In this document: piece after piece, positions 21,132-40,488 of the stretch
Position numbering within the stretch: the first letter of the stretch is position 1
How the letters are laid out: each line of letters begins with the position of its first letter
The notes under the pieces: model-generated
Databases searched by the model: none
Told to the model about the DNA's origin: nothing
The model's input: the letters and a program-made list of their open reading frames with translations, nothing else
From: Planctomycetes bacterium UBA1146
GTDB lineage: Bacteria > Planctomycetota > UBA8108 > UBA1146
Length of the DNA stretch: 46,433 nt
Direction: 5' to 3'
Assembly: GCA_963854815.1 (NCBI GenBank)
Contig: CAWLAN010000002.1
Coordinates: 1 to 46,433, forward strand
Made by a program: the position numbers and the translations under genes

Positions 21132-23684
21132 ATGCACCGAAGGATTTTTTTACGGATCTACCCCGCCGTGATCTGTTGGTTAGCTCTGGCGACGTATGTG
21201 TCTGCTCAATCGGACTGGGTTCAGTTCAACAATGAGACGGCCATTCGCATCAATGCAGCCGGGAGTGTCAGTACCACTGACACGGCTGAAAAGGACTATA
21301 TCTGGGGTGACGTCGATCAGGATGGAGACATCGATCTGATCGCGGTCCGCAAACAACCCTTCACTAGCGGAGGTGCCGGCGCATTTCGAACCAATGTGCT
21401 GTTCATGAACGAGAACGGCGTTCTCGTCGACCGGACATCCGAATATGCAAGTGCATCGGACGTCCCCGGCGATAACGGTTTCCTCACCCCCACCAATGAT
21501 CGCGATGTGATCCTCGCCGATATCACCGGTGACGGTTGGCTCGACATCATCACCGCGGTCACCCTTTCCGATGGCTCTCCAAAACACATCGCCTACCCAC
21601 GCGTTTACCGCAACCTGGGTCTCTCGGGCGGTCAATGGCAGGGTTTTCTGTATGAAGATGCACGCATCCCCCAGTTCGAGGGAAACACCGGTGGTTCACC
21701 GCACGCTCCTCGTTTCTGTTCGCTCGATGCGGGAGACATCGATAGTGACGGAGATCTGGATATCTATCTGGGTGACTATGATAGCGGTGGCGGCCAGACG
21801 CTCGACTTCAACGACCGTCTGCTGATCAATGATGGAAACGGTTTCTTCAGCGATCAAACCATCGCCAGGTTCAGCGGCTCCATCATCATCGGCGGCAGTC
21901 CGTTCCCGTTCCAGCAGTCAGCCTTCGGCATGGCATCTTCGATCCGCGATATCAATGGTGATGGTCACCTGGACATCATCAAGGACACTGCGCTCAATCC
22001 GCCACAGTACGTGGGAATCTCCTACAACAACCCCGCTGGAAGTGGTTCCTTCTCGGCGCACAAGGAGAGTTTCGCCAATATGGCGCCCTACCACGTCACC
22101 GTCGGAGATCTCAACAACGATGGTAGAAACGACCTGGTCGTCACCGATGACAATGCCGACTCTTTCCTGATCAACACAGGCAATGACGGCAGCGGGATGG
22201 CGAACTTTAGTCGTTTCTTCTACACCTTTGCTGGCGGCACCGGCGCCACCGGAGACGACGGCTTTGGCGGCAACTCCGTCATTGCAGATCTCGACAATGA
22301 CGGCTGGAACGATGTGATCATCTCTGACGTCGACGTCGACATCTCTGGCTGTGCCCGTCGTATGCACATCTACCACAACCTGGGTAACGGTCCGAATGTC
22401 ACCCTGCGCCAGGAGAATGATGGAGCGGCGTGGAGGCCCAACGGTGTCCACGACGTCGCCGTCTTCGACATCAATGGTGACGGCTGGCTCGACATGGTCA
22501 TCGGAACCTGCACCGGAACCGAGGTGTGGATGAACGAGGCTCCCATCGGGCTCAATATCAGTTTCCCGGCAGGAACCCCCGATGCGGTTCCGTGCGAGGG
22601 TCAGGCAATCGTCACCGCCCAGATCGAGGCATTCGGTGGCGGAGTGGTGTCGGAGCCGAGCGTGACGATAAATGTCTCGGCAGACGGAGATCCTTTCGTC
22701 GCAACCGTGATGACACCGATTGGCAATGGCCTCTACGAAGGAATCCTCGATGGCACTCTGGCCACTGCCTCGATGCAGTGGTTCGTCAGCGCAGAGTTGA
22801 CCAGTGGTCTCGCGCAAGTCAGCCAGACATTCTTCAATGTCCTGGCGGATTCAATTGACCGAGACGTCGATGACTTCGAAGCGGGCAATAATGGTTGGAC
22901 CGTCGAGACCGATCCGAGCGTAAGCGCCGGAGCATGGGTACTGGTCGATCCGAACGGTACCAACAGCGGTGGAACTGCCTCCCAGCCGGAAGATGCTGCC
23001 AGTGGAGCCCTGTGCTGGGTCACGGGCAACGGAGCGGTCGGAGGAGCCGCCGGTACCGCCGACCTCGACGGTGGTCCAACGCATCTGATCAGCCCTACCT
23101 ACAACCTGGCCGGCACCACGCCGATCATCAGTTTCAGCCTCTGGTATGCCAACATCGAATCCAATACGAACCAGCTCGACGACTTCGTCGTTTCCATCTC
23201 CGCCGATGCGGGAGTGACCTGGGCCACGGCACTGGTCGTTGGAGGAGCGCTCGGTACCTCTTCGAACTGGCAGACGTTCGAGATCCTGGTCAGTGACTTC
23301 GTCACTCCGAGCGCCAATATGGTGTTCAGGTTCACGGCATCGGATTCGCCGAATAACTCACTTTGTGAGGCAGCGATGGACGATTTCACCGTGGAAACGA
23401 CGACCTGCAACGGTCAGGGGCCGCAGTTCAAACGGGGAGACGTGAACATCGACGGGAACCTCGACATCAGCGACGCGGTCTCGATTCTGCAGATGCTGTT
23501 CAACGGAACTGCAGTGAGTTGTGACGATGCTGCAGATGCCAACGACGACGGATCGCTGAACATCGCAGACGCCGTGGCAATCCTCAGCGCTCTCTTCGGA
23601 GGGGCTGGTAACTTGCCAGAGCCGGTCAACTGTGGGCAAGACCCGACTGATGACTCACTCGAGTGCGCAAGTGGCTGCATCTGA
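21132..23684 (+). CDS. Secreted seven-repeat FG-GAP/VCBS beta-propeller protein (850 aa) with a MAM/jelly-roll-like domain and a C-terminal dockerin-like module
   Basis: The signal peptide ends ALATYVSAQS. There are seven Ca-loop repeats: GDVDQDGDIDLIAV, DITGDGWLDII, GDIDSDGDLDIYLGD, DINGDGHLDII, GDLNNDGRNDLVVTD, DLDNDGWNDVIISD and DINGDGWLDMVIG. A later segment (DDFEAGNNGWTVE...CWVTG...FRFTASDSPNNSLCEAAMDDFTVE) resembles MAM / choice-of-anchor-type domains. Confidence 0.85.
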   Translation: MHRRIFLRIYPAVICWLALATYVSAQSDWVQFNNETAIRINAAGSVSTTDTAEKDYIWGDVDQDGDIDLIAVRKQPFTSGGAGAFRTNVLFMNENGVLVDRTSEYASASDVPGDNGFLTPTNDRDVILADITGDGWLDIITAVTLSDGSPKHIAYPRVYRNLGLSGGQWQGFLYEDARIPQFEGNTGGSPHAPRFCSLDAGDIDSDGDLDIYLGDYDSGGGQTLDFNDRLLINDGNGFFSDQTIARFSGSIIIGGSPFPFQQSAFGMASSIRDINGDGHLDIIKDTALNPPQYVGISYNNPAGSGSFSAHKESFANMAPYHVTVGDLNNDGRNDLVVTDDNADSFLINTGNDGSGMANFSRFFYTFAGGTGATGDDGFGGNSVIADLDNDGWNDVIISDVDVDISGCARRMHIYHNLGNGPNVTLRQENDGAAWRPNGVHDVAVFDINGDGWLDMVIGTCTGTEVWMNEAPIGLNISFPAGTPDAVPCEGQAIVTAQIEAFGGGVVSEPSVTINVSADGDPFVATVMTPIGNGLYEGILDGTLATASMQWFVSAELTSGLAQVSQTFFNVLADSIDRDVDDFEAGNNGWTVETDPSVSAGAWVLVDPNGTNSGGTASQPEDAASGALCWVTGNGAVGGAAGTADLDGGPTHLISPTYNLAGTTPIISFSLWYANIESNTNQLDDFVVSISADAGVTWATALVVGGALGTSSNWQTFEILVSDFVTPSANMVFRFTASDSPNNSLCEAAMDDFTVETTTCNGQGPQFKRGDVNIDGNLDISDAVSILQMLFNGTAVSCDDAADANDDGSLNIADAVAILSALFGGAGNLPEPVNCGQDPTDDSLECASGCI
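23427..23681 (+). other. Dockerin-like double EF-hand module with Cys tail (copy A, C-terminal)
   Basis: FKRGDVNIDGNLDISDAVSILQMLFNGTAVSCDDAADANDDGSLNIADAVAILSALFGGAGNLPEPVNCGQDPTDDSLECASGCI. Confidence 0.75.
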
Positions 23685-23742
23685 TAGGAAACGCCACTTT
23701 CCGTCGGAATCGATCCGGCCGGGTGGTTTGTGAACAGACAGA

Positions 23743-23955: not shown

Positions 23956-25737
23956 ATGTTTGATCTGCTGAAGACGCACAGCGTGCGCCGATTCACCTGC
24001 TGCGGGATGGGTGCCTTCCTGCTGCTGATGGTCACATTACTCGTGGGAGTGACTCCACTGCTCCAGGGGCAGCAATTGCAACCGCGTATGGGGGATCCCA
24101 TCGACGGTCTCACCCCGGATCAGTTGGATCGTTTCTTTGCGGGCAGGGATGAGTTCCTGCGAACCTTCGTCGAGGCGGATGGACTGGGCCCTGGATTCAA
24201 TCAGGACTCCTGCGCCTCCTGTCACGCGAATCCCGTCGGTGGTGGTGGAAGCATCACAGTGACCCGGTTCGGAGCTGCAGACAAAGGAGAACCTTTTGAT
24301 CCTCTGGCGTTCCTCGGAGGATCTTTGCTGCAAGCCAACGCCATCTCGGACGAATGCCTGGAGACGGTCCCGGCGGCGGCGACCGTCACCGCAGAACGGA
24401 TCACTCCGTCGCTGCTCGGTGCCGGTTTGATCGAAGCGATCCCCGATGCCGACCTGCTGGCGCTCAACAACGGCGGTGTGGCGCACATGGTGCCGCTGCT
24501 GGAGGATCTCAATGGTCCACTGGTCGTCGGCAAATTTGGCTGGAAAGCTCAGGTGGGCACGCTGCTGTCTTTCAGTGGCGATGCCACCCTCAACGAGATG
24601 GGCATCACCAATAGCCTCGTCGGCATGGAGAATGCACCCAACGGGGACCAGGCCCTACTGGCCCAGTGTGATCTGGTCGCGGACCCGGAAGAGCCACTGG
24701 TCGACGGGGTGCTGTTCATCGAGCGCCTCACCGACTTTCAGCGCTTTCTGGCTCCCCCACCTCAGACTCCCAAGAGCGGTATGGCTGGCGAAGTGATCTT
24801 CAACAGCATCGGCTGTGCTAGCTGTCATATCCCGTCATTCACCAGCGGTGTAGCGCCGGAGGCAGCCCTTTCCAATATTACTTTTCGCCCCTACGGAGAT
24901 TCCCTGCTCCACGAAATGGGGGGCCTCGGCGATGGCATCGTGCAGGGAGATGCTCTCGAACTGGAGATGAAAACTCCTCCGCTGTGGGGGATCCGAGTTC
25001 GTGGTCAATTGCTCCACGATGGTCGAGTACTGGTAAACAGCCTCAGTCAGGGGATCGATGAAGCGGTGTCGTGGCACTTCGGACAGGCTTTGGCGGCTCG
25101 CGAGGCGTGGCAACAACTTGCCGCTGGAGATCAAGATCTGGTCGTTTCGTTCCTGAACTCACTGGGACGAGCCGAGTTCGACATGGACGGTAACGGTTTC
25201 ATCGGATTCGGTGATTTACCAGATTTCATCGATTGCTGGACCGGTGACGCACCGGGAACTTTCGATGCCGATTCCCCCTGCGCCGTCAGTGATCTCGATC
25301 AGGACGGGGATGTCGATAGCGATGACCTCGATGGACTGCAACTGGCCTACATGGACACCCCGGCCGATTGTGACGCAAATGGCACCTGGGATCTGATTCA
25401 GATTCTTCTCCAGGGCGGCGATGCCAACGGCGATGGCATCCTCGATGCCTGCGCGGGTTCGATTTTCCGCCGTGGCGATGGCAACGACGACGCCGGCGTC
25501 GACATCAGCGATCCCATCGCAGCATTGAGCATCCTGTTCGGCGGTGCGCCTGCGCCGACCTGCGAGGATGCCCACGACTCCAACGACGATGGCGCCTTCG
25601 ACATCAGCGATCCCATCTACACCCTCACTTTCCTGTTCGGATCGGGGTTGCCGATGCCCGAACCTGGAAGTGTGAATTGTGGTCCTGACCCGTCAGTAGA
25701 TACCCTCGAATGCGACTCTTACACCAGTTGTCTCTGA
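23956..25737 (+). CDS. DUF1111-family di-haem protein (putative peroxidase / thiol oxidoreductase type) with extra EF-hand loops and a C-terminal dockerin-like module (593 aa)
   Basis: The ATG at 23956 is preceded by GGGAGATGGGA. A TM/signal segment (MGAFLLLMVTLLVGV) is present. There are two CxxCH haem motifs: CASCH at 24211-24225 and CASCH at 24814-24828. The DGLGPGFNQDSCASCH context is typical of DUF1111. Confidence 0.85.
   Translation: MFDLLKTHSVRRFTCCGMGAFLLLMVTLLVGVTPLLQGQQLQPRMGDPIDGLTPDQLDRFFAGRDEFLRTFVEADGLGPGFNQDSCASCHANPVGGGGSITVTRFGAADKGEPFDPLAFLGGSLLQANAISDECLETVPAAATVTAERITPSLLGAGLIEAIPDADLLALNNGGVAHMVPLLEDLNGPLVVGKFGWKAQVGTLLSFSGDATLNEMGITNSLVGMENAPNGDQALLAQCDLVADPEEPLVDGVLFIERLTDFQRFLAPPPQTPKSGMAGEVIFNSIGCASCHIPSFTSGVAPEAALSNITFRPYGDSLLHEMGGLGDGIVQGDALELEMKTPPLWGIRVRGQLLHDGRVLVNSLSQGIDEAVSWHFGQALAAREAWQQLAAGDQDLVVSFLNSLGRAEFDMDGNGFIGFGDLPDFIDCWTGDAPGTFDADSPCAVSDLDQDGDVDSDDLDGLQLAYMDTPADCDANGTWDLIQILLQGGDANGDGILDACAGSIFRRGDGNDDAGVDISDPIAALSILFGGAPAPTCEDAHDSNDDGAFDISDPIYTLTFLFGSGLPMPEPGSVNCGPDPSVDTLECDSYTSCL
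25465..25734 (+). other. Dockerin-like double EF-hand module with Cys tail (copy B, C-terminal)
   Basis: FRRGDGNDDAGVDISDPIAALSILFGGAPAPTCEDAHDSNDDGAFDISDPIYTLTFLFGSGLPMPEPGSVNCGPDPSVDTLECDSYTSCL. Confidence 0.75.
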
Positions 25738-25840: not shown

Positions 25841-26659
25841 TCACAAAGCCCACTCCAGAAAGGCGTAACTTCCTCCGAGGTCGATATCCGCACTGATTCC
25901 GGCGCCGTCGTCGGTGACATCGATGACGAGCGATCGGTGCCCGACTCCGATCAGCATTCCTGATCCCTGGCGAATCCCCGCTCGAATCGTCATTCCCTGG
26001 TAGGTTCCATCGATGTCGCCGTAACTGATCCACAGGCCGGCGATCTCCCCATCGAGTTCGATACTCCAGTTATTGCCAATCGGAGCCGAGAAGGTTGCTC
26101 CGAGACCGAACGAGGGTACCCACTCATCGATGCTCTCACTGGCAGACACTGGTACTGGTAGTTCAGGGCCCGTGGCCGTGAGGGTGGTACCGAGTTCCAG
26201 ATGATCGACCCCCCAGATGTACTTCAGCAGTATCGGTCCGACTCCCAGCAACGCTCCCTTGCTGCGAAAAGTGGAGACTTTCGCGCGAAAATCACTCTGC
26301 AGGAGCGCGCCATCCGGGAACTCCTCTCCGGAGTAAACGAAGCCCCCCATCAGGGTATTGGAACCCATCGATGAGTAATCGAGAGTGGTCACCTCGAAGG
26401 TGCCCACTCCCAGATCCGCCTCGAGACCATAGACCCAGAAACCCTCACGAGATGTGAGGCCGAGAACATCCTCCAGATCGAGATCGAGATCGAGATCGTC
26501 CAGATCGGAAGCCCGAATCGAACCGCCCGGTTCCGGTTCCCAGTTCTCAGCGCGAAACCGGAACATCCCGGCTCCACCGGCACCACAACCCGACAGCATG
26601 ATCGAGCACAACAACAGGGTCACGCTCAGGACGCACAAGTGTTTCTGGATGGCGTTCAT
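25841..26659 (-). CDS. Putative outer-membrane beta-barrel lipoprotein (272 aa)
   Basis: I chose the ATG at 26657-26659, which has GGAAGGAG upstream. The signal plus lipobox is MNAIQKHLCVLSVTLLLCSIMLSGC. An acidic (LD)n linker is followed by alternating-hydrophobic beta-strand-like sequence. The aromatic-rich C-terminus is SYAFLEWAL. Confidence 0.6.
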   Translation of the reverse strand: MNAIQKHLCVLSVTLLLCSIMLSGCGAGGAGMFRFRAENWEPEPGGSIRASDLDDLDLDLDLEDVLGLTSREGFWVYGLEADLGVGTFEVTTLDYSSMGSNTLMGGFVYSGEEFPDGALLQSDFRAKVSTFRSKGALLGVGPILLKYIWGVDHLELGTTLTATGPELPVPVSASESIDEWVPSFGLGATFSAPIGNNWSIELDGEIAGLWISYGDIDGTYQGMTIRAGIRQGSGMLIGVGHRSLVIDVTDDGAGISADIDLGGSYAFLEWAL

Positions 26660-26773: not shown

Positions 26774-26857
26774 GGGCGAGTGGCGGAACTGGTATACGCG
26801 GCGGACTTAAAATCCGCTCCCCGTTCGGGGATCCGGGTTCGACTCCCGGCTCGCCCA
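26774..26857 (+). tRNA. tRNA-Leu (anticodon TAA), CCA not encoded
   Basis: GGGCGAGTGGCGGAACTGGTATACGCGGCGGACTTAAAATCCGCTCCCCGTTCGGGGATCCGGGTTCGACTCCCGGCTCGCCCA. The acceptor is GGGCGAG/CTCGCCC. The anticodon stem is GCGGA/TCCGC with loop CTTAAAA. The long variable arm CCCC-GTTC-GGGG is typical of Leu. The T arm is CCGGG-TTCGACT-CCCGG. Confidence 0.93.
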
Positions 26858-26973: not shown

Positions 26974-27768
26974 TCACTTCTGAGGGAAGAAGCAGTCCTG
27001 GAAAATCTTCTGGAACTCTTCCGGCTCTCGAGAAGTGGCGAAGTAGTAGCACACCGATTCAGAGGGACAACAGAAGACCGCGAGGTTGCGACCTTCCATG
27101 GCACACTGAAGCCCATCGATCTCGCCAGGGGAACTGGGACTGACGAAAAAGGAGAGGGGTTCCCGCCCGAGCAGATAGAAGACCTTGGCGATGCGAAGAT
27201 CGCCGCACTGTTCGAAGGAAACTCCCTGCAGCGTTGCCGTCTCTCCGATGCAATCCTGCAACCGATCCAGATCGAACAGCCGCACCTCGGTACCCAGTTC
27301 CTTCGCCATGAAGGCGGCCATCTTCTCGGAGCCATCGAACCGCCACTCCGGACTCGCCTCACCATTGACACTCCTGAGGTGCGAATCAAACACATGGGTC
27401 GAGACCATCGCGTGGAGATCCTGATTTTGTCCGGGGAAGAAGTGATTGAAGGAGGAGAGGAGCACGAAGAGGAAGGCCGCGGCGATGGCAAAGGGGAGCA
27501 TCTTTCGCCCGGTCCATCGCGGATAAGACCGCTGCCTTCCGGCCTCGATGGCAATCGACTGCCGGACCCTCGCCTCGAGGTCTTCAGGGACTCGAGGTCG
27601 CTGTGCCTTGGTCTTCACCAGTAGTTTGATGTGCTCGACGGCCTTGGCGGCATCGGCGCACTTGGGACAGAGGGAGACGTGCGTGTCGACTTCCTCGCTA
27701 AAGGAGCCTTCCAGCTCGCCATCGACCCACTCGTGGAGTCGTTCTCTATATCGCATACAATCCTTCAT
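26974..27768 (-). CDS. Anti-sigma factor (264 aa) with an N-terminal zf-HC2 zinc finger, one TM helix and a Cys-rich extracytoplasmic domain
   Basis: The sequence LHEWVDGELEGSFSEEVDTHVSLCPKCADAAKAVEHI shows the H-x3-C-x2-C anti-sigma motif. The TM helix is MLPFAIAAAFLFVLLSSF. The gene lies 18 nt downstream of the ECF sigma gene, with AAGGAATAAGGG upstream of the ATG. Confidence 0.8.
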   Translation of the reverse strand: MKDCMRYRERLHEWVDGELEGSFSEEVDTHVSLCPKCADAAKAVEHIKLLVKTKAQRPRVPEDLEARVRQSIAIEAGRQRSYPRWTGRKMLPFAIAAAFLFVLLSSFNHFFPGQNQDLHAMVSTHVFDSHLRSVNGEASPEWRFDGSEKMAAFMAKELGTEVRLFDLDRLQDCIGETATLQGVSFEQCGDLRIAKVFYLLGREPLSFFVSPSSPGEIDGLQCAMEGRNLAVFCCPSESVCYYFATSREPEEFQKIFQDCFFPQK

Positions 27769-27786: not shown

Positions 27787-28362
27787 TTATTCGCGCCCAT
27801 ATCCCAACTCATGGGCGTAATTTACCAAGCGCTCCTTCAGAAACGCCCGTCCTCTTGAGATCCTGGAACGAACCGTACCGATGGGTACATCCAGCACCTC
27901 CGAAATTTCTCCGTAACTCAAACCCTCCAGATCACAAAGCAACAGAGCTTTGCGGAAGGGTTCTGGAAGTTCTAGCAAGTAGCGATTCACTTCGTCTCCG
28001 AACAGATCGAGGAAGGTTTCCTCGTTCTCGATGCCATCACGCTCGAAGACCTCGATCGAACGTCGTGGAGAATCCACCGCCAGTTCCTCGACCGCAGAAC
28101 TATGATGCGGACGTCGGGCCTTTTCACGGTACAAGTCGATGAAGTGATTCTTGCAGATCCTGAACAACCAGGACTTCGCGTTGCTTCCGGCGCGGAAACG
28201 ATCGAAAGCCTTGAAGGCCTTCAGGAATGTATCCTGGACCAGATCTTCTGCCTGTGCCCGGTTCCTCGTCAGACCCAGGGCGAAGCGGAAGACGTCATCG
28301 ACGTGAGGAAGGGTGATCTCCTCGAAGAGATTCCGTTCTCCTCGACTTCCTTTCTCACTCAT
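27787..28362 (-). CDS. ECF-type RNA polymerase sigma-70 factor
   Basis: 191 aa. Region 2 is AEDLVQDTFLKAFKAFDRF ... NHFIDLYR. Region 4 is LSYGEISEVLDVPIGTVRSRISRGRAFLKERL. AAGGAGG lies 5 nt upstream of the ATG at 28362. Confidence 0.93.
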   Translation of the reverse strand: MSEKGSRGERNLFEEITLPHVDDVFRFALGLTRNRAQAEDLVQDTFLKAFKAFDRFRAGSNAKSWLFRICKNHFIDLYREKARRPHHSSAVEELAVDSPRRSIEVFERDGIENEETFLDLFGDEVNRYLLELPEPFRKALLLCDLEGLSYGEISEVLDVPIGTVRSRISRGRAFLKERLVNYAHELGYGRE

Positions 28363-28398: not shown

Positions 28399-29451
28399 CT
28401 AATCCCGGCTCGAGTTCTCCCGAGACCGAAAATCACCCTCTACGGGACCGGACGAGGATTCTGCTGCTCCAGTTCCTACTTTTTTTGCAAGGCCCCAGAT
28501 GGCCAGATTCGCCACATCCTGGCCTGATTCCGCCCACATCCGCTCCCAATCGATCGCCTCTGGATCATAGATCTCGGCCATCAGCACCCGCGGCAGGCTC
28601 CAGCGCTCGCTGGCGAGTGCTGCTGCTGAGAAAGCCTGCCACTGCTGGGCTTCCAACGACTGCAGAAACTGCTGGTGAGCCTGCCGGCGTTTCCCGGCCA
28701 GCAATCCGTCTCGATACTTGCGTAGAAGGCGGTTGAGACGCAGTTCATCATGATATCTGAGTCGGTGACGTGTGCTTTCATCTCCATCTTCGCCGTATCT
28801 TGAAACCAACCACTCCTGAGCCAGACGATTTCCGAGGAAGGTCGCCAATCCCTCGTTCCATTGCGCGTTGCTCGGCATGTGAATGGTCCGGTGAACCAGT
28901 TCGTGGAGCAGCGTCGTTACCCATCGATGCTCGGGAAGTTCCAGCAGCGATGTGAGCATCGGCTCTGCAAACCATCCGAGACTGCTCCATGCCTCGACTG
29001 CCATCACTTCCGACTCCCAGCCAAGAGTAATGAGTTGATTGGCTTCTTGTTGGGCATGATCACGGAACCGATATCCCTTGTAGGGAACCTTTCCCACCAG
29101 AGGAAAACTCCAGTGGTGAAGGCTCATCGTATTCGGATCAGCGGCCACCACGATCCAACTGACGGGGCCCGCAATCGAATCGATCCGTTGGTAGGCATTC
29201 CCGACCTGTAGCCCGCGCATACGGGCAAAATCCAACACGTCCGGTAGTAGTTCGAGTTGCGACCGCAACCTCGAACTCTCATCCAGATCACTCATCACCT
29301 GTTGGTGGGGTCTGGAGGAGGCGAGTCGATGGGTCACCGCGCTGGCATTGGAGGCGATCCAGGCGGTATGGCAGCCGCACATGCAGATCAACATCCCCAG
29401 CAGGAGAGAGCACAGAAAACCGCGGTTTCTGAACGGATTACGGGTTTTCAT
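28399..29451 (-). CDS. Putative zinc aminopeptidase (predicted-aminopeptidase family), lipoprotein (350 aa)
   Basis: I chose the ATG at 29449-29451, 10 nt after the acylase stop. This gives MKTRNPFRNRGFLCSLLLGMLICMCGC (lipobox). The motif LLHELVHRTIHMPSNAQWNEGLATFLG matches the HExxH plus NE signature of that family. Confidence 0.7.
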   Translation of the reverse strand: MKTRNPFRNRGFLCSLLLGMLICMCGCHTAWIASNASAVTHRLASSRPHQQVMSDLDESSRLRSQLELLPDVLDFARMRGLQVGNAYQRIDSIAGPVSWIVVAADPNTMSLHHWSFPLVGKVPYKGYRFRDHAQQEANQLITLGWESEVMAVEAWSSLGWFAEPMLTSLLELPEHRWVTTLLHELVHRTIHMPSNAQWNEGLATFLGNRLAQEWLVSRYGEDGDESTRHRLRYHDELRLNRLLRKYRDGLLAGKRRQAHQQFLQSLEAQQWQAFSAAALASERWSLPRVLMAEIYDPEAIDWERMWAESGQDVANLAIWGLAKKVGTGAAESSSGPVEGDFRSRENSSRD

Positions 29452-32101
29452 CGAATGTCGGGAAGGGACGGTGGAAGAACCCATCGAAGATGTCGGTGAA
29501 GCCGAAGTATTGCTCATCAAACTCCGGTTCTCCTCCCGGACCCTGGTAGATCGCCCCCGACTCTCCCAGCGGGATCATCGATTCGATCCGTACCGGCCCA
29601 CCGGGTCCCACTTCCACCACCTGAGCATAAGTGGATCGATCGAGCCAGGGTGAACTCCACACCTGCCCCACCACCGATCCCACATAATCGATGGTGGCAC
29701 GCTGGTGATTCCAGGGACGTGGACCGAGTTCCGCAAGAGTATCGTCGAGCGCAAGTATGATGATTCCGGTGGCGTCGGTCGGTTTCGGTATGGAACTACG
29801 ATTCTGGAACCAGTCGATGCGGTTCTCGAGTACCGCACCGGATCCGGGCAGTGCCCGGATCAGTACGTTGAAGAGCAGGTTTCGATCCTGATTGGTGTAG
29901 AACAGGCTCTCGGTGTCGAGTTCATCCTCGAAGGTCAACTCGAGTGTTCGGCTGATCCAACGATCCTGCAGCAGCCAGGCATCCGCATCCAGTTCGCCAG
30001 TGGTCCAGGCATCCGGTCCACCTGCCGGGAAGTAACCATCCCACTGTTCCATCAACATCAAAGCCTCGAGGCGTTCCAGGTCGAGATCGGATTCGACCGC
30101 ATCGACGAAGGCATCTTTGACGAAGAACCAGCGATTTCCGCCACTGCGGCCCAGATCGCAGCAATCGGTTGCACTGACCTCTAGCGCCAGGTCGCGCACG
30201 AACTCGAAGGAGAGAGGGCCCTCTTCCACCGCATCGGCGAGCCGATCTTGCACCGCATGTGCTCGATGAAACCGCCCGTAGGCATGGATAGGATTGGCGC
30301 CACCAGCGGGCCCTCCACCCGCTTTGTTGTTCCAGCCGCCGATCCATCCGCGTTGAGGGTTCCGAACCGTCTTACGCGGCTTGTAGGTAACAGGTTGCGT
30401 CCATTCCATGGTGCCGTCACCGAGCTGGGGCAATCTAGGATCCGCATCCGGGGGGCGGACCGGATCGAGTCCCGCCATCCAGTACCCGACATTGCCCCGT
30501 CGGTCTGCATAACAAACGTGAAGGCTGACACAGAATCGATCCATCGCGTCCGCGAAATCATCGATGTTGCGAGCCGTGATGTAATCCAGATTCACATCGA
30601 TGGTTTTGAGTTCCTTTTGCCAATGAGAATACTTCCACGCCGCAACAGGTCCTTCTAGAATATCCGGATTGAGGATCAGCGGTGCGACTACCGGACCGTG
30701 CTCGGTGTGATAGATCGGCAGCGTCAACACCGCACCTTCATTGTTGAGCGGGATGTACTCGATCCTGTGCAGGAAGATGTCCTCAGCATCATCGATGTAG
30801 ATGTCAACGGTATGAGCGTGGGCCACCTGGCCTGACCATGCATGTTGCGGTGAACGGCCGATGATCATCCCCGGAAGTCCAGCCAGCGCCATCCCTGAAA
30901 TCTCGATCCCCGCACCTTTCAGTGAACCCTCGACGATGAGGCCAGGCGCATTGAAACCCATCTGTGGTCCCGAGTAGAGGATTGGATTTCCTGACTCGGT
31001 GAGGTCTCCCGAGACCACCCAGGCGTAACTTCCCATGCGAATCGTGGAGCCGAGTTCCGCAAGTCTTCTGGTCGTTCCGGCAAATACGTCATCGACCCTG
31101 TCTCGCAGGGCACGAAGGTTCTCGATCTGGTACTGCCCCGGATGAGGAACCGGAGGCGGATTTGAGCCTGCAAATGGAATCACGAAGTCCTCGGGGGGAA
31201 TCATCGTCGGAGCTTCGGGATCATCGAGCCATCGAAGATCATCGAACATCTCCATTCCATCGATCGGGTGTTCATCGAGCAACTCCGCCAGCAATAGAGC
31301 ATTGTCCATTTGATGAGTGGAGAGCGCCTCCGAATCGAAGTTTCTCAGCAAGGTCACCTGGAGCGCCATCACATCCGTGATGGTCCAGAGATCGGGAACG
31401 AAATCGAGTTCGTAAAATTCATAGGGAAGTAGATCTGGATTCGCAATCACATCTTCGATGCGTCGATTGAGCCCATCGATATAAGCCAGCGCAACAAGCT
31501 GTCCCACTTCGGAAACCTGGGAAAAACCATCTTCGAGTTCCTGCTCCGAATATCCAAGCAGTCGGATGGCGATATCCGTGTTGAGTTGGCTGGGTCCGAG
31601 GATCTCGGTGAGTCTACCCGTGCATAACCTCCTGAAGAATTCCATCTGCCATAACCGGTCGGTGGCAACGGCGTAACCAAACGCCTCGTACAGACCGTAC
31701 AGATCTCCACCCTCGATGAACCAGACTCCCTGATCATCCCGGCTCACCGTTACATCCGGGACCTCCGGACAGACCGGATAACTGTCACACTCACCGATGG
31801 AGGAGATTGCGCAGTAGGGATATGGATGCCTTGGTGGACCGCCATCCATCAGTCGATAAGAGATGATATGCGCAGCATCTGCGAGATCGACCACGCCATC
31901 GGCATTGGTATCGCGGGCGGCGGCACACTCTCCTCCCGGTCCTCCCAGATAAAGATGCTGCAGCAGCCAGATCCCATCGGCGATATTCACCCGTCCATCG
32001 ACATTGGCATCGCCTCGCAGGAATGGAATGTCCGCCGCAGGAACAAATCCCCCGGTGAAGGAGAAGAGCACCATGAATAGGCACATCGACAGGCGGAACA
32101 T
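29438..32101 (-). CDS. Penicillin/AHL-acylase family Ntn hydrolase (peptidase S45-like, 887 aa) with an N-terminal dockerin-like module
   Basis: I chose the ATG at 32099-32101, which has AAGGAGG 8 nt upstream; the track start at 32203 is over-extended. The signal peptide is MFRLSMCLFMVLFSFTGGFVPAAD. The acylase core includes WQMEFFRR, the putative nucleophile context MGSYAWVVSGDLTESGNPILYSGPQMGF, and GRSPQHAWSGQVAHAHTVD. Confidence 0.88.
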   Translation of the reverse strand: MFRLSMCLFMVLFSFTGGFVPAADIPFLRGDANVDGRVNIADGIWLLQHLYLGGPGGECAAARDTNADGVVDLADAAHIISYRLMDGGPPRHPYPYCAISSIGECDSYPVCPEVPDVTVSRDDQGVWFIEGGDLYGLYEAFGYAVATDRLWQMEFFRRLCTGRLTEILGPSQLNTDIAIRLLGYSEQELEDGFSQVSEVGQLVALAYIDGLNRRIEDVIANPDLLPYEFYELDFVPDLWTITDVMALQVTLLRNFDSEALSTHQMDNALLLAELLDEHPIDGMEMFDDLRWLDDPEAPTMIPPEDFVIPFAGSNPPPVPHPGQYQIENLRALRDRVDDVFAGTTRRLAELGSTIRMGSYAWVVSGDLTESGNPILYSGPQMGFNAPGLIVEGSLKGAGIEISGMALAGLPGMIIGRSPQHAWSGQVAHAHTVDIYIDDAEDIFLHRIEYIPLNNEGAVLTLPIYHTEHGPVVAPLILNPDILEGPVAAWKYSHWQKELKTIDVNLDYITARNIDDFADAMDRFCVSLHVCYADRRGNVGYWMAGLDPVRPPDADPRLPQLGDGTMEWTQPVTYKPRKTVRNPQRGWIGGWNNKAGGGPAGGANPIHAYGRFHRAHAVQDRLADAVEEGPLSFEFVRDLALEVSATDCCDLGRSGGNRWFFVKDAFVDAVESDLDLERLEALMLMEQWDGYFPAGGPDAWTTGELDADAWLLQDRWISRTLELTFEDELDTESLFYTNQDRNLLFNVLIRALPGSGAVLENRIDWFQNRSSIPKPTDATGIIILALDDTLAELGPRPWNHQRATIDYVGSVVGQVWSSPWLDRSTYAQVVEVGPGGPVRIESMIPLGESGAIYQGPGGEPEFDEQYFGFTDIFDGFFHRPFPTFDENP
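31769..32023 (-). other. Dockerin-like double EF-hand module with Cys tail (copy D, N-terminal, directly after the signal peptide)
   Basis: FLRGDANVDGRVNIADGIWLLQHLYLGGPGGECAAARDTNADGVVDLADAAHIISYRLMDGGPPRHPYPYCAISSIGECDSYPVC. It shares the ECDSY..C tail with copy B. Confidence 0.7.
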
Positions 32102-32248
32102 CCGGAACACCTCCTTGGCGTGGTCTATTCTAACGCTGGAAACAGCCAGAATCAGCGCTACGACCCTCGGTTCCTGAGTCCCACGGCGCTGGTAGAATGG
32201 CATCCGGGTCCAGATCCTGAAAAGGCTCCCACCATGGAGGTTACTCTG

Positions 32249-33238
32249 ATGAAGAAATCGTCCTTCGCTGTGTTTCTCATCTCAGTGATGACGCTCTCCC
32301 TCAGCGCTGGAGAACCGATCGAGACCGCATTCGTGAACTCCTCGATCACCGTCGTCGGTGGCGAACTCGGAACGGTTGCCGATCTGATCAATCCACTGCT
32401 CGATAGCACCATCATCGGAGGCGGGATCCGCACTCTACTCGAGGTGAGACTTCTCGATGATCCGACGATGCAAAACGATCCGGAAATCGAGGTCGCTTCC
32501 TTCCCTGGAATCGATGTCGATGGAAATCCTGACAACGACTTCGATGGAGACAATCTCTACGAGGTAGACCCCATCGGACTCGATGATGATGGCGAACCGA
32601 TCACCATCTTCACCCCCGGCTCGATCACAGACGGTAATATCGTCGCAGGCCCCGCCGATCTCGATCTCGGTGGTGGCCTCGTGATCCCCGGGGCGATTCT
32701 CGAGGGTAGCATCGCTGTTGGTGGAACCTCCCTCGACACGTCGGTCATCTCGGCCGCGGTACCGGTCGCAGTCTTCGATGCGATTCCGGCTCCAGCACCC
32801 TTCAACGGGTTTCCCTTCAACTTCGATACCCTGACCCAGGTGTTGGCGTTTTTCGGCGTTGATCCAGATGTCGATCTCGATGGAGACGGCATCTTCGATG
32901 CTTACTCGGTCGATTTCGTGCTGAACTTCGTCTCCTGCCAGATCATCTATCCGGCAACGGAAATCTCTTTCCAGCGAGCTGACATCAACCTGGATGGAGC
33001 CGTAGATATCGGCGATGCGGTCAACCTGCTCGGATACCTGTTCGTCGGAGCAGACGAACCAGGATGTCTCGATGGGGCCGACGCCAACGATGATGGAGCC
33101 GTGGACATCGGTGATCCGATCCTGATTCTGGGATATCTCTTCACCGACGGGATTGCTCCCAGCGAACCCTTCGAGAAATGCGGGACGGATCCAACTGCAG
33201 ATTCCATCACCTGTGAGGTCCCGCCCGCTGGTTGCTAG
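32249..33238 (+). CDS. Secreted acidic protein of unknown function (329 aa) with a C-terminal dockerin-like module
   Basis: I chose the ATG at 32249, which has GGAGG 8 nt upstream. The signal peptide is MKKSSFAVFLISVMTLSLSAGEP. I recognise no family for the approximately 240-aa N-terminal part. It is divergent from the acylase gene across a 147-nt spacer. Confidence 0.7.
   Translation: MKKSSFAVFLISVMTLSLSAGEPIETAFVNSSITVVGGELGTVADLINPLLDSTIIGGGIRTLLEVRLLDDPTMQNDPEIEVASFPGIDVDGNPDNDFDGDNLYEVDPIGLDDDGEPITIFTPGSITDGNIVAGPADLDLGGGLVIPGAILEGSIAVGGTSLDTSVISAAVPVAVFDAIPAPAPFNGFPFNFDTLTQVLAFFGVDPDVDLDGDGIFDAYSVDFVLNFVSCQIIYPATEISFQRADINLDGAVDIGDAVNLLGYLFVGADEPGCLDGADANDDGAVDIGDPILILGYLFTDGIAPSEPFEKCGTDPTADSITCEVPPAGC
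32969..33235 (+). other. Dockerin-like double EF-hand module with Cys tail (copy C, C-terminal)
   Basis: FQRADINLDGAVDIGDAVNLLGYLFVGADEPGCLDGADANDDGAVDIGDPILILGYLFTDGIAPSEPFEKCGTDPTADSITCEVPPAGC. Confidence 0.75.
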
Positions 33239-33793: not shown

Positions 33794-36040
33794 TCAGGGG
33801 CTCTGGGGATCTTGGCTCTCCTTCTGGCTCTCCTTCTGGCTCTCTTCCTGGCTCTCTTCCTCGGTCACGGGTTCCCCTGCATCCGCTGTTGAACGCAGTT
33901 GCCGAGCGATCTCGAGCAGTCTGCCGGAAAGTGCACCGACATCCGAGGTGGGAAGATCACAAACCTGATCGACACACAAAAATGCCCGGGGAGAATCCTC
34001 GCCAGCGCGGTCCTGTAGCAACGAAATCACCTCGGCTGCCTTGACCCCCGACTCCCCGGAGGGCCTGAGCGCCACCACGCAGAAGGGAATCGGTGACTCG
34101 ATGGCAGCCTTCAGCAGAGCTCGAGTTTCCTCTCGACTTGGATCTCCGACCACTGCTACGGCAGGGGTGGCGCGGACGAGTGCCTGGACCGCCAGCAACA
34201 GTTCAGCTGATCCGGTCGGATAGGGACCGATCGAACGAAGCCCCGCAGCGATGATGTGTTCGGCGTGGAAGCGGTACTGGCCTTCTCCGGTCAATTCGTG
34301 CAATCGCAACAGACACCTCGCCACAGTGGCATTTCCCGAGGGAATCGCACCATCAAAAAACTCTCTGCGCCTGCCGAGCAAGACCTCGGCTCCTGCGGGT
34401 GCTTCGTACAAACCCTCGTCCTGCTCGAGCGGACCGAAATCGCGCAGGATCAATTGCCAGCAGCGTGCGGCTTCGGCAACAAAGTCGGGCCGAAAGGTGG
34501 CTTCATAGAGATCGAGACAGCATTTCATCCAGAGAGCAGCATCCTGAAGCGTAGCGGGGTTGCCCGCGATTTCACCATCTCTGCGGCGAAGAAAGCCATC
34601 ATCGTTGACGAGAGAACCCTTGAGTGATGCGTAGGCTCCTACCGCCGCTTCGCGGAACACCGGCTCATCGAGCAAAGCCGCGCCTCGAGCCAGTGCCGAG
34701 ATCGCCAGAGCGTTCCAGCCGAGAACCACTTTCGGATCTCGCTTCGGAGCGACGCGATGACTCCTGTGTTGCTCCATCTTGTCAATTCCCTCGGAGAACC
34801 ACGTCTCTGCCACTTCCATCTCGATACCAAGAGATTTGGCGGCACCTTCGAGAGTCGTCGCTCTTCGAGGAACACTTTCTTCTCCCCCCTCGAAGTTCCC
34901 GGGGCTGGTGATACCCAGCACCGTGCACAAAAGAGCGGCACGCTCTTCTCCGAGCAACTCCTCGACCTGCTCTGGGGTCCACACGTAATAGGATCCCTCG
35001 ACACCTCCCGAATCTGCATCCCAGGATCCTGCAAAGGAGCCATCCTCGAGCCGGAACTGGCGCAACATCGCCTCCAGGGTCGCTCGACCGTTGGAGTAGA
35101 GTCCAGCGTCGCTGGTCATCCGTCCGACCTCGAAGTAACTCTCTGCAAGTGATCCCTGGTTGTAGAGCATCTTCTCGAAGTGTGGCACCTGCCACTCTGC
35201 ATCGACGCTGTAACGGTGAAAACCACCCCCGACCTGATCATAGATGCCGCCGGCGGCCATCGCGCGCAACACCGAAACACCCTGATCGATGGCCCCTTGG
35301 TCCCCCCGCATCGTCCCTTCCCCGACCAGATACTGAAGCAGCCGAGGCGCAGGAAATCGTGGCGCCTTCCCGAACCCTGCTGGATCCGGCGTGTAACTGT
35401 CCGCGGCTCCCGTGAGACCTCCATTCAGATATGCCTCCGGCTCGATTCCCTCGAAGACCCGCGCCGATCTCTCTTCGAGACTCCTGGTCAGGCCGATTGC
35501 ATTGTCGATGACCTTCTCCCGCTCCTCACGCCAGACCCGATCGATGGAACTCAATATGTCCATGAAACCTGGCCTGTTGAAACGAGTCCTCGGCGGGAAG
35601 TAGGTTCCACCGAAAAATGGGGTCAGATCCGGCATCAGGAACACGGAGAGGGGCCAACCTCCTCTTCCTGTCATCGCCCTCACTGCATCCATGTAGACAT
35701 CATCGACGTGAGGAAGATCTTCACGGTCGACTTTTATCGAGATGAAGTTCTCGTTGAGGAAAGTGGCGATCTCCTGGTCGGAAAACGACTCTCGCCTCAT
35801 CACATGGCACCAGTGACACGACGAATATCCGATGGAGAGAAAGATGGGACGATCGAGAGCTTGAGCCTTATCGAATGCATCTTGACCCCAGGAATACCAC
35901 TCGACGGGATTTTCAGCATGTTCGCGCAGATAGGCGCTGGGGCTTTTCGCCAATCTCCAGCCCCCATGCTTCGGATCTGAGTCAGGTTCGTCTCCGGGTA
36001 ATGCGAGACAGAAGAGGGTGCAAAGCATCCAGGTATTCAT
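33794..36040 (-). CDS. Thioredoxin-domain protein of the YyaL / DUF255 family (thioredoxin fold plus six-hairpin glycosidase-like domain), 748 aa
   Basis: NPVEWYSWGQDAFDKAQALDRPIFLSIGYSSCHWCHVMRRESF is the DUF255 signature. GGAGG lies 7 nt upstream of the ATG at 36040. The N-terminus is hydrophobic (MNTWMLCTLFCLALPG). The C-terminal tail is the low-complexity EESQEESQKESQKESQDPQSP. Confidence 0.9.
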   Translation of the reverse strand: MNTWMLCTLFCLALPGDEPDSDPKHGGWRLAKSPSAYLREHAENPVEWYSWGQDAFDKAQALDRPIFLSIGYSSCHWCHVMRRESFSDQEIATFLNENFISIKVDREDLPHVDDVYMDAVRAMTGRGGWPLSVFLMPDLTPFFGGTYFPPRTRFNRPGFMDILSSIDRVWREEREKVIDNAIGLTRSLEERSARVFEGIEPEAYLNGGLTGAADSYTPDPAGFGKAPRFPAPRLLQYLVGEGTMRGDQGAIDQGVSVLRAMAAGGIYDQVGGGFHRYSVDAEWQVPHFEKMLYNQGSLAESYFEVGRMTSDAGLYSNGRATLEAMLRQFRLEDGSFAGSWDADSGGVEGSYYVWTPEQVEELLGEERAALLCTVLGITSPGNFEGGEESVPRRATTLEGAAKSLGIEMEVAETWFSEGIDKMEQHRSHRVAPKRDPKVVLGWNALAISALARGAALLDEPVFREAAVGAYASLKGSLVNDDGFLRRRDGEIAGNPATLQDAALWMKCCLDLYEATFRPDFVAEAARCWQLILRDFGPLEQDEGLYEAPAGAEVLLGRRREFFDGAIPSGNATVARCLLRLHELTGEGQYRFHAEHIIAAGLRSIGPYPTGSAELLLAVQALVRATPAVAVVGDPSREETRALLKAAIESPIPFCVVALRPSGESGVKAAEVISLLQDRAGEDSPRAFLCVDQVCDLPTSDVGALSGRLLEIARQLRSTADAGEPVTEEESQEESQKESQKESQDPQSP
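33813..33860. repeat. In-frame 12-nt tandem repeat, 4 units (TGGCTCTCCTTC x2, TGGCTCTCTTCC x2)
   Basis: Read directly from the sequence. On the minus strand it encodes the (E/K)ESQ x4 tail of the YyaL-family protein. Confidence 0.85.
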
Positions 36041-36144
36041 CGATGACCTCCAGCGCTTTATCTTAGTTGGTCGAGCCTGTCGACGTGAGAGGATCCTCCC
36101 AAAGCGAGAAAAATCTCGTTTTTACCACTGGAACCGCTCTTCTC

Positions 36145-38418: not shown

Positions 38419-38658
38419 TCCCCGTCTCCCCTCTCACCCGGAGGCCAACCCTCAGGGCGAAAGAACTTTACGAAACTTTTACCATTGCTGTCAAATCGTC
38501 TAAACCCGACTTGCTGATCGATTTGTACGCAAACAGGCGTTTTTTGACAATACGGTCCGATGCGGTCCTATCTCCGGATTCTATCTTCCTGCAATTCAAG
38601 CGGGCGGATCGTCACCACGGGGGCGACGAACTGGAATCCCAAAGAAAGGGAGGTCTAC

Positions 38659-40488
38659 ATGACCAACCTCTATATGCCGAAGAGTTTCGCCCCATTTCTC
38701 TTCATCTTTTCTCTCCTGACGGTTGCCACTTTTTCTACCAGCAACCTTTCTGCTCAAGTTCACATGACCAACCTCGGAACCAGGGGGCTCGAATTGTCGC
38801 TGGAGATGACCCCGACCAGTGATGGCAACTACGTCACCGTCGGTCCTGTTATTCGCAGGTCACTCACAAGTGGTGCCGCGGTCGGGATCGACATCTATCT
38901 GAACAAGGTGGATGGTAGCGGAGCATTGATCTGGTCGAGCCAGATCGCCCAGATCGGGCCCCAGGGAATCGGCAACAGTTTCCCGCTGTCTGTCACCGAA
39001 ACCATCGACGCCACCGGCGTCGTCAGTGGATTTGCGGTTACCGGCATGCTAGCTGCAGCAGGGAACCAGGAGCCCGTTTTCATCGTCACCACAGACAACA
39101 ACGGCATGCCAACTCGCTACAACAGTTATGGTGGAATTCTCCCCGCGGCTGGCGCCAATATTGGAACGATGGCCGGTTTCGGAGCTCAGATCATCCAGAA
39201 TCACCAGGGACAACTGGTCGTCTGCGGATCGGTTCTACTGGGTGATATGGGGTTCGATCCCTTCATCGTCGGACAGGTACCCTTCATCCTGGTCGTGGAG
39301 CCAGACCTGAGTTTGAACTTCCTTCGTCTCTACCATGACGTTCGTTACATCAACAATCTGTTCGGATTCGATGTCAGGAGCCACTTCGCTGACATTGAAG
39401 TGATCCTCCCAAACGCCAATAACACTCTGCCGGAAGGATACGTGGTAGTGGGTACTACCCAGAAGATGGATGAGCCCCTCAGGGAGATCATCGTCATGCG
39501 CACCGATCTGGCTGGTAACCCGGTCGCGGTAGGTGTGTACGGTCCCGAGAACGGCAACTCCCGGGGCACCGCCATCGAGGTCACCTCGACAGGTGATCTG
39601 GAGGTCGCTGGTCTCGTCCGAGACGCCACTGGGCTGCCGGCGGTCACTCGAGTACTGAAGCTCGATCCGGTCCTTTTGAACATTCTCGATCAGGATCAGT
39701 ACTACGGCTTCACCACGCTCGGTGATATTCGCGAAACCGCCAACGGCGATTTCCTGCTCAGCGGACGTGGTACCTTCGATGCCGATGGGGCCATCCTGAG
39801 AATCCAGAGTGACGGCACCCTCGTGTTCGGAAACGGATACGGAGGACCGAACGTCGAACTCTTCTGGGATACACACGAGATGCCCAACGGCGACCTCTAT
39901 GCCAGCGGTGTCACCACCACCTGGTGCCTGGGCCCTGCCGATGAATATCTCACACGCGCCAAGTCGGACGGCACGGTTCCCGGCTGCAATGTGTATGCGC
40001 TCAACATCGACCCCTATACTCCCAACGACGCACGCCGGGAAACCTGGATGGAGATACAGGATCTCGACAAGGTCATCGATCACGGCTACGAGGATCTGGG
40101 ACCAGATACCCGCGTAAGGCGGATCTGCCCGGTCATCATCATCGTCCACCCGTGGCCGTGGGATTGGTTCATTCGCGCTGACTTCAACCGTGATCTCGTC
40201 GTCGACATCGCGGATGTGGTCTCGAACCTGAGCCACCAGTTCAACGGAGGCGAAGCAGCGGTTCCAGAAGAAGCTGCCGACGCGAACGGTGACGGTGTGG
40301 TCGACATCAGCGATGCGATTTTCGGACTCGCGTACCTGTTCAATGACGGTACGGTGCCACCGGCACCCTTCGAGGCACCAGGTCCGGATCCGGCCAACAA
40401 CCAGGGCAACATCTTCGTACTGGAAGAACTGCCGCAGGCACTCGCTGGATTCAACTTGATGATGCAACTGCTGGAGTTAGGGCTCTAG
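38659..40488 (+). CDS. Secreted repeat (possibly beta-propeller) protein (609 aa) with a degenerate C-terminal dockerin-like module
   Basis: I chose the ATG at 38659, which has AGGGAGG 6 nt upstream. The signal peptide is MTNLYMPKSFAPFLFIFSLLTVATFSTSNLSAQ. The body is Gly/Thr/Val-rich with recurring G-D-(F/L)-x-(V/L)-x-G segments. The 410-aa ORF on the opposite strand is judged a shadow. Confidence 0.7.
   Translation: MTNLYMPKSFAPFLFIFSLLTVATFSTSNLSAQVHMTNLGTRGLELSLEMTPTSDGNYVTVGPVIRRSLTSGAAVGIDIYLNKVDGSGALIWSSQIAQIGPQGIGNSFPLSVTETIDATGVVSGFAVTGMLAAAGNQEPVFIVTTDNNGMPTRYNSYGGILPAAGANIGTMAGFGAQIIQNHQGQLVVCGSVLLGDMGFDPFIVGQVPFILVVEPDLSLNFLRLYHDVRYINNLFGFDVRSHFADIEVILPNANNTLPEGYVVVGTTQKMDEPLREIIVMRTDLAGNPVAVGVYGPENGNSRGTAIEVTSTGDLEVAGLVRDATGLPAVTRVLKLDPVLLNILDQDQYYGFTTLGDIRETANGDFLLSGRGTFDADGAILRIQSDGTLVFGNGYGGPNVELFWDTHEMPNGDLYASGVTTTWCLGPADEYLTRAKSDGTVPGCNVYALNIDPYTPNDARRETWMEIQDLDKVIDHGYEDLGPDTRVRRICPVIIIVHPWPWDWFIRADFNRDLVVDIADVVSNLSHQFNGGEAAVPEEAADANGDGVVDISDAIFGLAYLFNDGTVPPAPFEAPGPDPANNQGNIFVLEELPQALAGFNLMMQLLELGL
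40168..40401 (+). other. Dockerin-like double EF-hand module, degenerate copy E (first loop eroded, no Cys)
   Basis: FIRADFNRDLVVDIADVVSNLSHQFNGGEAAVPEEAADANGDGVVDISDAIFGLAYLFNDGTVPPAPFEAPGPDPANN is followed by a hydrophobic or amphipathic tail IFVLEELPQALAGFNLMMQLLELGL. Confidence 0.55.

Follow-up and report, generated by a model that had tools for sequence, protein, structure and literature searches.

A 46,433-nucleotide stretch of DNA from Planctomycetes bacterium UBA1146 (contig CAWLAN010000002.1; 57% GC, called the window here) encodes five secreted proteins that share one small module of ~85 residues, a duplicated EF-hand-like motif followed in four of the five by a tail with cysteines. 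We refer to it as the Cys-stapled dockerin, or stapled module. The DNA is of marine origin, and the contigs and proteins that it matches carry the label Planctomycetota. The five genes lie between positions 21132 and 40488, and all five proteins begin with a hydrophobic, signal-like segment. The gene order of this cluster is kept on three contigs of metagenome-assembled genomes (MAGs; L004, L005 and L018) at 50-79% amino acid identity, with every module retained.

The first gene (21132-23684, plus strand) encodes protein A, a secreted FG-GAP beta-propeller protein of 850 residues (Pfam FG-GAP_3, 4e-30) with a signal-like N-terminus, whose module (copy A, 23424-23681, plus) sits at the extreme C-terminus. 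An identical protein occurs on five metagenome contigs, and orthologues in L004 and L005 share 74-79% identity. Protein B (23956-25737, plus) is a DHOR/DUF1111-type di-haem oxidoreductase (Pfam DHOR, 1e-29), 593 residues long as called in L001/L002, with a C-terminal module (copy B, 25462-25734, plus) and orthologues of 71-74% identity. Protein C (32249-33238, plus; 329 residues as called) is a secreted acidic protein of unknown fold, also with a C-terminal module (copy C, 32966-33235, plus). It has no Pfam or NCBIfam match, a profile search with three sequences found no sequence relative of its N-terminal domain in the PDB, and its orthologues in L005 and L018 are 65-66% identical. Protein D, encoded on the minus strand by a 921-residue open reading frame (ORF; 29438-32203), is a hydrolase of the penicillin-amidase family (Pfam Penicil_amidase, 1e-92), and its signal peptide probably starts at an internal MFRLSM... 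Its module (copy D, 31769-32026, minus) is N-terminal, beginning directly after the signal-like segment (VPAADIPFLRGD), and it is N-terminal in the L005 and L018 orthologues as well (74-75% identity). Protein E, from a 642-residue ORF (38560-40488, plus), is a secreted protein of unknown function that carries copy E (40165-40401, plus). Its sole Pfam match is a weak one to Dockerin_1, and its L018 orthologue is 51% identical.

A hidden Markov model (HMM) built from the five copies finds these five and nothing else in a six-frame translation of the window (a search space of 70,000 residues), at 113-137 bits. With E-values of 1e-25 to 1e-36 and just five matches, chance and low complexity are ruled out as the source of the module. 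An independent family HMM of 90 positions, built from 120 database homologues, scores each copy at 83-118 bits: 109 for A (23424-23672), 116 for B (25462-25731), 118 for C (32966-33223), 83 for D (HMM positions 2-90) and 88 for E (positions 2-80). Neither the other ~27 kb of the window nor 7 kb of upstream sequence gave a further module in scans with the HMM. The original prediction, made from the letters of the window, had named the same five copies, and translation of its intervals together with the two HMMs shows its coordinates to be correct within 3-6 nt.

Four cysteines are present in each of copies A to D, and D keeps the spacing C..C......C although it lacks the G-x-D-P-T motif. Copy E has no cysteine and no tail. 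Its profile match stops at position 80 and about 29 further residues follow, a partly hydrophobic C-terminal extension (40402-40485, plus; QGNIFVLEELPQALAGFNLMMQLLELGL) that may represent an alternative way for the module to end or be anchored. Database protein P0010 has a near-identical copy that likewise lacks cysteines, and in the L018 orthologue of protein E the module also ends early (HMM position 81) and is not C-terminal.

The core of the module is, in its predicted structure, a dockerin fold. Two tandem segments of ~22 residues, each a 12-residue EF-hand-like calcium loop and then a helix, are both present in the five-copy alignment and in the family consensus. Loop positions 1, 3, 5 and 12 are D/N/D/D in both repeats; among 557 distinct modules, seven of these eight positions are conserved above 90% and the eighth at 82%. 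The AlphaFold2 (AF2) model of copy B, made with 109 homologues, has a pLDDT of 96.3 and a pTM of 0.87, with the tail also above 90. In a Foldseek comparison of this model with the PDB, ranks 1 to 28 were all dockerins solved with cohesins, at probabilities of 0.28-1.0, target-normalised TM scores of 0.36-0.82 (0.65-0.82 for single-dockerin chains) and root-mean-square deviations (rmsd) of 1.7-3.3 Å. About 60-72 of the 94 residues align in these matches, so the last ~25 residues are an extra part, beyond the dockerin fold.

No existing curated model explains the module. Pfam Dockerin_1 (PF00404; gathering cut-off 22.9 bits) aligns at HMM positions 2-55 only, which cover the two calcium loops and their helices. 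It scores copy A at 16.4, copy E at 19.0 and copy D at 22.9 bits, exactly at the cut-off and over protein residues 64-116 only, and copies B and C have no Dockerin_1 match at E ≤ 0.1. Since four of the five copies miss the Pfam threshold and the module has an additional stapled tail, we class the module as a dockerin variant and not as a plain member. Just 21 of 90 family members match Dockerin_1 at E < 1e-3. NCBIfam has no model for these modules or for the scaffoldin-like proteins described below, and its sole incidental match is the dockerin end of CelK. The family HMM gives Planctomycetota copies 70-120 bits over positions 2-90, and dockerins of Ruminococcus, Clostridiales, Chloroflexi and Bacteroidaceae 18-43 bits over positions ~6-60, the loops only. 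On these profile comparisons, the stapled module is a distinct dockerin subfamily. What had been proposed from the window was a double EF-hand of the dockerin type plus a tail absent from classical dockerins; the AF2 model, the Foldseek matches and the coverage of Dockerin_1, which leaves the Cys tail outside, all support that description.

The tail is conserved well beyond the window. In the best 120 homologues the consensus is FxRGDxNxDGxVDISDAIxxLxYLFxGGxxPxCxDAADANDDGxVDIADAIxxLxxLFxGGxxPPxPFxxCGxDPTxDxLxCxSYxxC, with cysteine occupancies of 98% (Cys35), 89% (Cys73), 96% (Cys84) and 75% (Cys90). The ECDSY..C stretch noticed earlier in copies B and D is real, C-x-S-Y-x-x-C being the family consensus. 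The cysteine count is even in 85% of the 557 distinct full modules, with two cysteines in 190 and four in 235. Cys35 and Cys84 are nearly universal. Cys73 and the last cysteine are gained and lost together: the tail has three cysteines in 279 of the 309 modules with Cys73, and one cysteine in 211 of the 248 modules without it. In the AF2 model of copy B, isolated DSSP beta-bridges fall at the Cys35 and Cys84 positions (model residues 37 and 87). Because of this covariation and these bridges, the cysteines are predicted to pair as Cys35-Cys84, joining the tail to the linker between the repeats, and optionally as Cys73-Cys90. Another optional pair, Cys8 and Cys39 (RGDC...CxDAC), is found in ~6% of modules (for example L083 7188-9077 and L066 8001-9881). 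Its two cysteines occur in 32 and 35 modules and together in 27 (Fisher p = 7e-34), and in a less fragment-biased subset 18 of 27 modules with the pair belong to cohesin-bearing proteins. The pair hints at a distinct dockerin subtype.

The family is very large. A profile search of 1.84 billion representative proteins returned 41,077 proteins at E ≤ 1e-3 and 23,643 at E ≤ 1e-10, with up to seven full copies in some proteins. In a scan of species-representative genomes, the confirmed loci were almost all in uncultured Planctomycetota MAGs, and the family is essentially restricted to this phylum. Full-length stapled dockerins and scaffoldins do appear under other labels, in L052 and L059 (a Candidatus Woesearchaeota archaeon bin) and in P0274, P0310 and P0321 (Bacillota bacterium), but mis-binning or mis-labelling of these contigs is a likelier explanation than true occurrence. 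The cargo of the module ranges over SBBP and FG-GAP propellers, beta-helices, Vgb-lyase-like proteins, DUF1800, FGE-sulfatase, DHOR, LPMO10, C25 and trypsin peptidases and multihaem cytochromes.

The stapled module is small and conserved, and it mostly sits at the very C-terminus of exported proteins that vary widely within one phylum. In this it resembles the C-terminal domain of the type IX secretion system (T9SS) and PEP-CTERM, and like these it could be a sorting or secretion signal, recognised and perhaps removed by an export or attachment machine. Its placement is partly what one would expect of such a signal. Among 118 complete ORFs, 95 (81%) have the module at the extreme C-terminus, where copies mostly end within 0-2 residues of the last cysteine; the four-Cys form is enriched at C-termini (137/217 vs 65/206), and the diversity of the cargo is extreme. 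However, 15 of these ORFs (13%) have an N-terminal module and 8 an internal one, equally well conserved, and some proteins have two to seven copies, or copies alternating with cohesins. The module consists of dockerin helices, not of a beta-sandwich or a transmembrane helix, and is without a hydrophobic anchor. No NCBIfam sorting-signal model matches it, and no candidate sorting enzyme is conserved beside the module genes. We consider a sorting signal very improbable. Position independence, proposed earlier from the single N-terminal copy in the window, is borne out by the 23 of 118 ORFs with an N-terminal or internal module, and it speaks for a binding domain and against a C-terminal sorting signal.

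A candidate for what the module binds comes from its relatives. Many family members are proteins of ~650 residues with three modules and spacers of ~180 residues between them. This Doc-spacer-Doc-spacer-Doc architecture is fixed, at ~635-710 residues, in P0129, P0135-P0137, P0140, P0143, P0145, P0149, P0152, P0153, P0155, P0160, P0162, P0166 and P0176. The spacers are one family, as an iterative search recruits 88 of 103. Pfam Cohesin (PF00963; gathering cut-off 24.1 bits) matches 20 of 26 spacers, some above the cut-off and the best at 34.9 bits (E 7e-9). In the PDB, the matches of a spacer profile are almost exclusively cohesins, more than 30 of them and with E-values as low as 3.7e-9. P0271, a protein with three cohesins and a dockerin, was modelled with AF2 at a pLDDT of 85.7. 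The model contains three beta-sandwiches plus the dockerin helices; against single cohesins it gives TM scores of 0.75-0.84 and rmsd values of 2.4-3.5 Å. By profile and by model, the fused and arrayed spacer domains are cohesins. The Doc-Coh-Doc-Coh-Doc proteins could in principle self-polymerise.

Cohesins also appear beside the module in gene arrays. The densest module clusters (L009, L030, L047, L066 and L083) are, according to a planctomycete cohesin HMM of ~177 positions, tandem genes that each encode one to three cohesins and then a stapled dockerin. With one such protein as query, a metagenome scan added 12 contigs, each with the same kind of array of four to eight co-directional genes. 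Arrays lie at 260-10434 in L083, 286-11236 in L066 and 6103-14279 in L047, and in L088-L099 (for example 745-18335 in L090). They are usually closed by a protein of ~1,700 residues with Big_5, FG-GAP and TIG domains. On the contigs whose flanks were examined, a metallophosphoesterase gene and yidC adjoin the array, with mnmE beyond on two. Each array gene encodes cohesins together with its own stapled dockerin, so these scaffoldins could also chain. Almost all scaffoldin products are named 'hypothetical', without a precomputed Pfam domain. In the genome scan, about one in five module-bearing ORFs (25 of 131) also has a cohesin. Contig L005, which holds the syntenic orthologue of the window cluster (~51-79% amino acid identity), and the array of L083 are assigned to the same MAG, CAYPPQ01, so a close relative would have both clients and scaffoldins.

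The reading that we prefer, with moderate confidence, is that the five proteins of the window are clients of a cohesin-dockerin assembly. Each would be exported by the Sec route through its signal peptide, carrying a dockerin-class module. After export, the module would fold round two calcium ions and be locked by one or two disulfides: beyond a proline-rich turn, the tail of 20-25 residues would fold back on the core and be stapled by Cys35-Cys84, and optionally by Cys73-Cys90. The module would then dock its cargo (propeller, di-haem oxidoreductase, acylase and two proteins of unknown function) on the cohesins of scaffoldin-like proteins encoded elsewhere in the genome, and these, bearing stapled dockerins of their own, would chain onto each other. 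Together they would form an assembly of the 'planctosome' type, built like a cellulosome but non-cellulolytic and located in an oxidising compartment outside the cytoplasm. The receptor of the module is probably a cohesin. We infer cohesin binding, its calcium dependence, the formation and pairing of the disulfides, the cellular location and the existence of a cohesin array in this organism. The original prediction had diverse enzymes tethered to a common receptor, which fits the relatives, where the module is fused to or arrayed with cohesins; the part of it that made this a local system finds little support.

A wider version of this reading is conceivable, and we put it forward tentatively. 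A very large cohesin-dockerin network specific to the phylum may exist in marine and groundwater Planctomycetota, in which the stapled dockerin would tag a large fraction of the secretome (redox enzymes, acylases, propellers and multihaem cytochromes among it), the arrays would polymerise into a surface or periplasmic matrix, and the tail would be a new element of stability or specificity for an oxidising environment.

Several observations weigh against a cohesin-dockerin assembly in this organism. First, no cohesin was found in the window by Pfam, by a planctomycete cohesin HMM or by hhalign, nor in the 7 kb upstream; the absence of a cohesin-like partner from the window had already been noted in the original prediction. 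Three candidates for a hidden cohesin, the lipoprotein at 25841-26659, the N-terminal domain of protein C (alone and as a three-sequence profile) and the N-terminal region of protein E, were rejected at hhalign probabilities of 0.07-1.6% against the planctomycete cohesin profile. Second, the arrays from the metagenome scan all come from other samples and none could be placed in the organism of the window. The tetranucleotide correlation of array contigs with the window reaches at most 0.955 (L088) and is 0.93 for L109, against 0.98-0.99 for contigs of the same organism, a comparison that is suggestive at best. Third, the link between L005 and L083 depends on the binning of the MAG. Fourth, client modules are of the four-Cys type, whereas those borne by scaffoldins often have two cysteines or the Cys8/Cys39 pair. 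Fifth, no membrane or cell-wall anchor was identified for the scaffoldins. Finally, many non-cellulosomal dockerin-like modules of other organisms are not known to have a cohesin partner.

The same observations leave some room for a different ligand. The module could be a dockerin-like domain, stabilised by calcium and disulfides, whose ligand is, for example, peptidoglycan, a glycan of the envelope, a protein resembling those of S-layers or a polysaccharide substrate, or that has a purely stabilising or solubilising role, the cohesin fusions then being a separate use of the fold. The lack of a cohesin in the window is in keeping with this, as is the excess of module-bearing ORFs without a cohesin over those with one (106 vs 25 of 131), and the conserved tail (CGxDPTxDxLxC), which has no counterpart in cohesin-binding dockerins, could form another binding face. 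But almost all genes of the cohesin arrays end with the module, together with its tail, and in the Doc-Coh-Doc proteins the cohesins have it on either side. This arrangement is the signature of a cohesin-dockerin system, and the helices with the classical recognition positions are conserved and internally symmetric (DI[SA]DA in both repeats). A non-cohesin ligand or a purely stabilising role is, in our judgement, unlikely. The Cys-stapled dockerin is a large, unannotated and phylum-specific dockerin variant with identifiable cohesin partners in relatives of this organism, to which it is predicted to bind.

The closest known counterpart of the module is the type I dockerin of clostridial and ruminococcal cellulosomes (PF00404; PDB 2ccl, 4fl4, 2vn5 and 5lxv). 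Both have the duplicated calcium loop and helix, the same fold, at target-normalised TM scores of 0.7-0.82, and symmetric putative recognition helices; both are attached to diverse secreted enzymes and co-occur, the stapled module on contigs of related Planctomycetota, with clustered scaffoldin-like genes. Unlike the type I dockerin, the stapled module has a tail of ~25 residues (P-x-P...CGxDPTxDxLxCxSYxxC) and two to six paired cysteines, and N-terminal and internal placement is common. Its hosts are Planctomycetota from aerobic marine and groundwater settings, and its cargo is not cellulolytic (haem oxidoreductases, acylase, propellers, sulfatase-modifying enzyme, multihaem cytochromes). The dockerin of Ruminococcus flavefaciens ScaA is held by an intramolecular clasp that is reportedly non-covalent. 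In the account of that clasp, it confers structural stability (PMC3821032). That clasp holds the terminal segments together, and the stapled tail would have the same stabilising role, but in the stapled module the connection to its dedicated tail extension would be made by one or two disulfides. In function, the ScaA clasp could plausibly correspond to the staple.

A cohesin-dockerin assembly without a cellulolytic role had, as a general concept, been anticipated for Planctomycetes by the 'planctosome' hypothesis (Andrei et al. 2019, ISME J, PMC6461901), under which planctomycete cohesins and dockerins fall outside the cellulosome model and tether non-cellulolytic enzymes in a calcium-dependent manner. 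As set out there for freshwater Nemodlikiaceae, the planctosome has one anchoring protein with a lamin-tail domain and a cohesin, one adaptor with dockerin, HYR and cohesin domains, and clients that are dockerin-bearing M12B and M14 peptidases. It remains a hypothesis, and it has been cited since. The arrays described here differ from the parts given there, as they are made up of proteins with one to three cohesins and a dockerin, and of a ~1,700-residue Big_5/FG-GAP/TIG protein. The passages that set out the planctosome contain neither a Cys-stapled tail nor cohesin-plus-dockerin arrays, nor a scale of tens of thousands of proteins. Full-text literature searches found no description of a Cys-stapled planctomycete dockerin or of cohesin-plus-dockerin gene arrays.

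If the proposed assembly exists, a cellulosome-style architecture would be a major organiser of the secretome in one phylum, unrelated to cellulose, and would explain how diverse extracellular enzymes stay attached to these bacteria. It would also give the planctosome idea a testable form, with defined dockerins, cohesin arrays and a predicted disulfide topology. It would further supply a naturally and covalently stabilised dockerin scaffold that could be of use in designer enzyme complexes. In practical terms, two new profile models could annotate tens of thousands of proteins now called 'hypothetical'.

The module genes of the window had been proposed to form a surface-display or assembly system of their own. 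In such a dedicated, co-regulated display locus at 21-40 kb, the receptor would be an unknown local protein, for example the lipoprotein at 25841-26659. Five copies do lie within 19.3 kb, with none in the other ~27 kb or the 7 kb upstream, the gene order is kept in three other MAGs, and an ECF (extracytoplasmic function) sigma/anti-sigma pair sits in the middle. Its members are an ECF sigma factor (27787-28362, minus), 74-79% identical in L005 and L018, and a zf-HC2 anti-sigma factor (26974-27768, minus), 50-52% identical in these two. However, the cluster genes alternate in strand and are interspersed with a tRNA-Leu(TAA) gene (26774-26857, plus, between the lipoprotein and anti-sigma genes), an aminopeptidase-like lipoprotein, a DsbH-like thioredoxin-fold protein, DUF885 and cytoplasmic genes such as DUF188. 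A second tRNA gene, tRNA-Cys(GCA) (20559-20632, minus), lies just upstream of the first module gene. A promoter and terminator scan of 21-40.6 kb gave counts at or below shuffled expectation and carries no operon information.

Nor is the density of modules in the window unmatched elsewhere. Near module seeds, other contigs from Planctomycetota have ~0.9 additional copy per 10 kb, flat over 0-10 kb; this density is conditioned on the seed, being based on contigs around module-bearing genes. The 17 seed-centred loci with a full 20-kb span have a mean of 1.0 extra copy, which puts the four extra copies of the window in the upper tail, a point for the display locus. But five copies in 19 kb are matched by L047 and exceeded by L030 (nine in 13 kb), L066 (seven) and L083 (seven), and a simple scan statistic for five of five copies within 36% of 53.6 kb (the window plus 7 kb upstream) gives p ~0.06. 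The lipoprotein proposed as a partner (25841-26659, minus; 272 residues) has the lipobox LSGC, an acidic DLDLDLDLE stretch and a C-terminus (...AFLEWAL) that resembles an outer-membrane beta-barrel terminus. Its L005 counterpart is 62% identical; the lipoprotein has no Pfam match and, like the other local unknowns, is not cohesin-like. We regard a local display locus as quite improbable. The mixed strands, the two tRNA genes, the sigma pair, the cytoplasmic genes and the extremely wide distribution of the module all speak against the claim. The 19-kb cluster is probably not a system in itself; it is an ordinary conserved neighbourhood rich in client genes, and the five-fold recurrence in the window mostly reflects how common the tag is.

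Two other features of the window deserve mention. A DUF255/thioredoxin-like (Thioredox_DsbH) protein of 748 residues (33794-36040, minus) is encoded amid the genes for Cys-stapled modules. Its N-terminus is signal-like, its C-terminus is acidic and repetitive (EESQEESQKESQKESQ), and the L018 counterpart is 69% identical; any link of this protein to disulfide chemistry is speculative. Further away, at 3455-7559 (minus), are two adjacent, paralogous TPR + DUF1570 proteins with ORFs of 775 and 650 residues, DUF1570 being typical of planctomycetes. These ORFs overlap by ~175 nt, which makes an internal start probable for the downstream gene (3455-5782); in L084 this gene is called as 713 residues.

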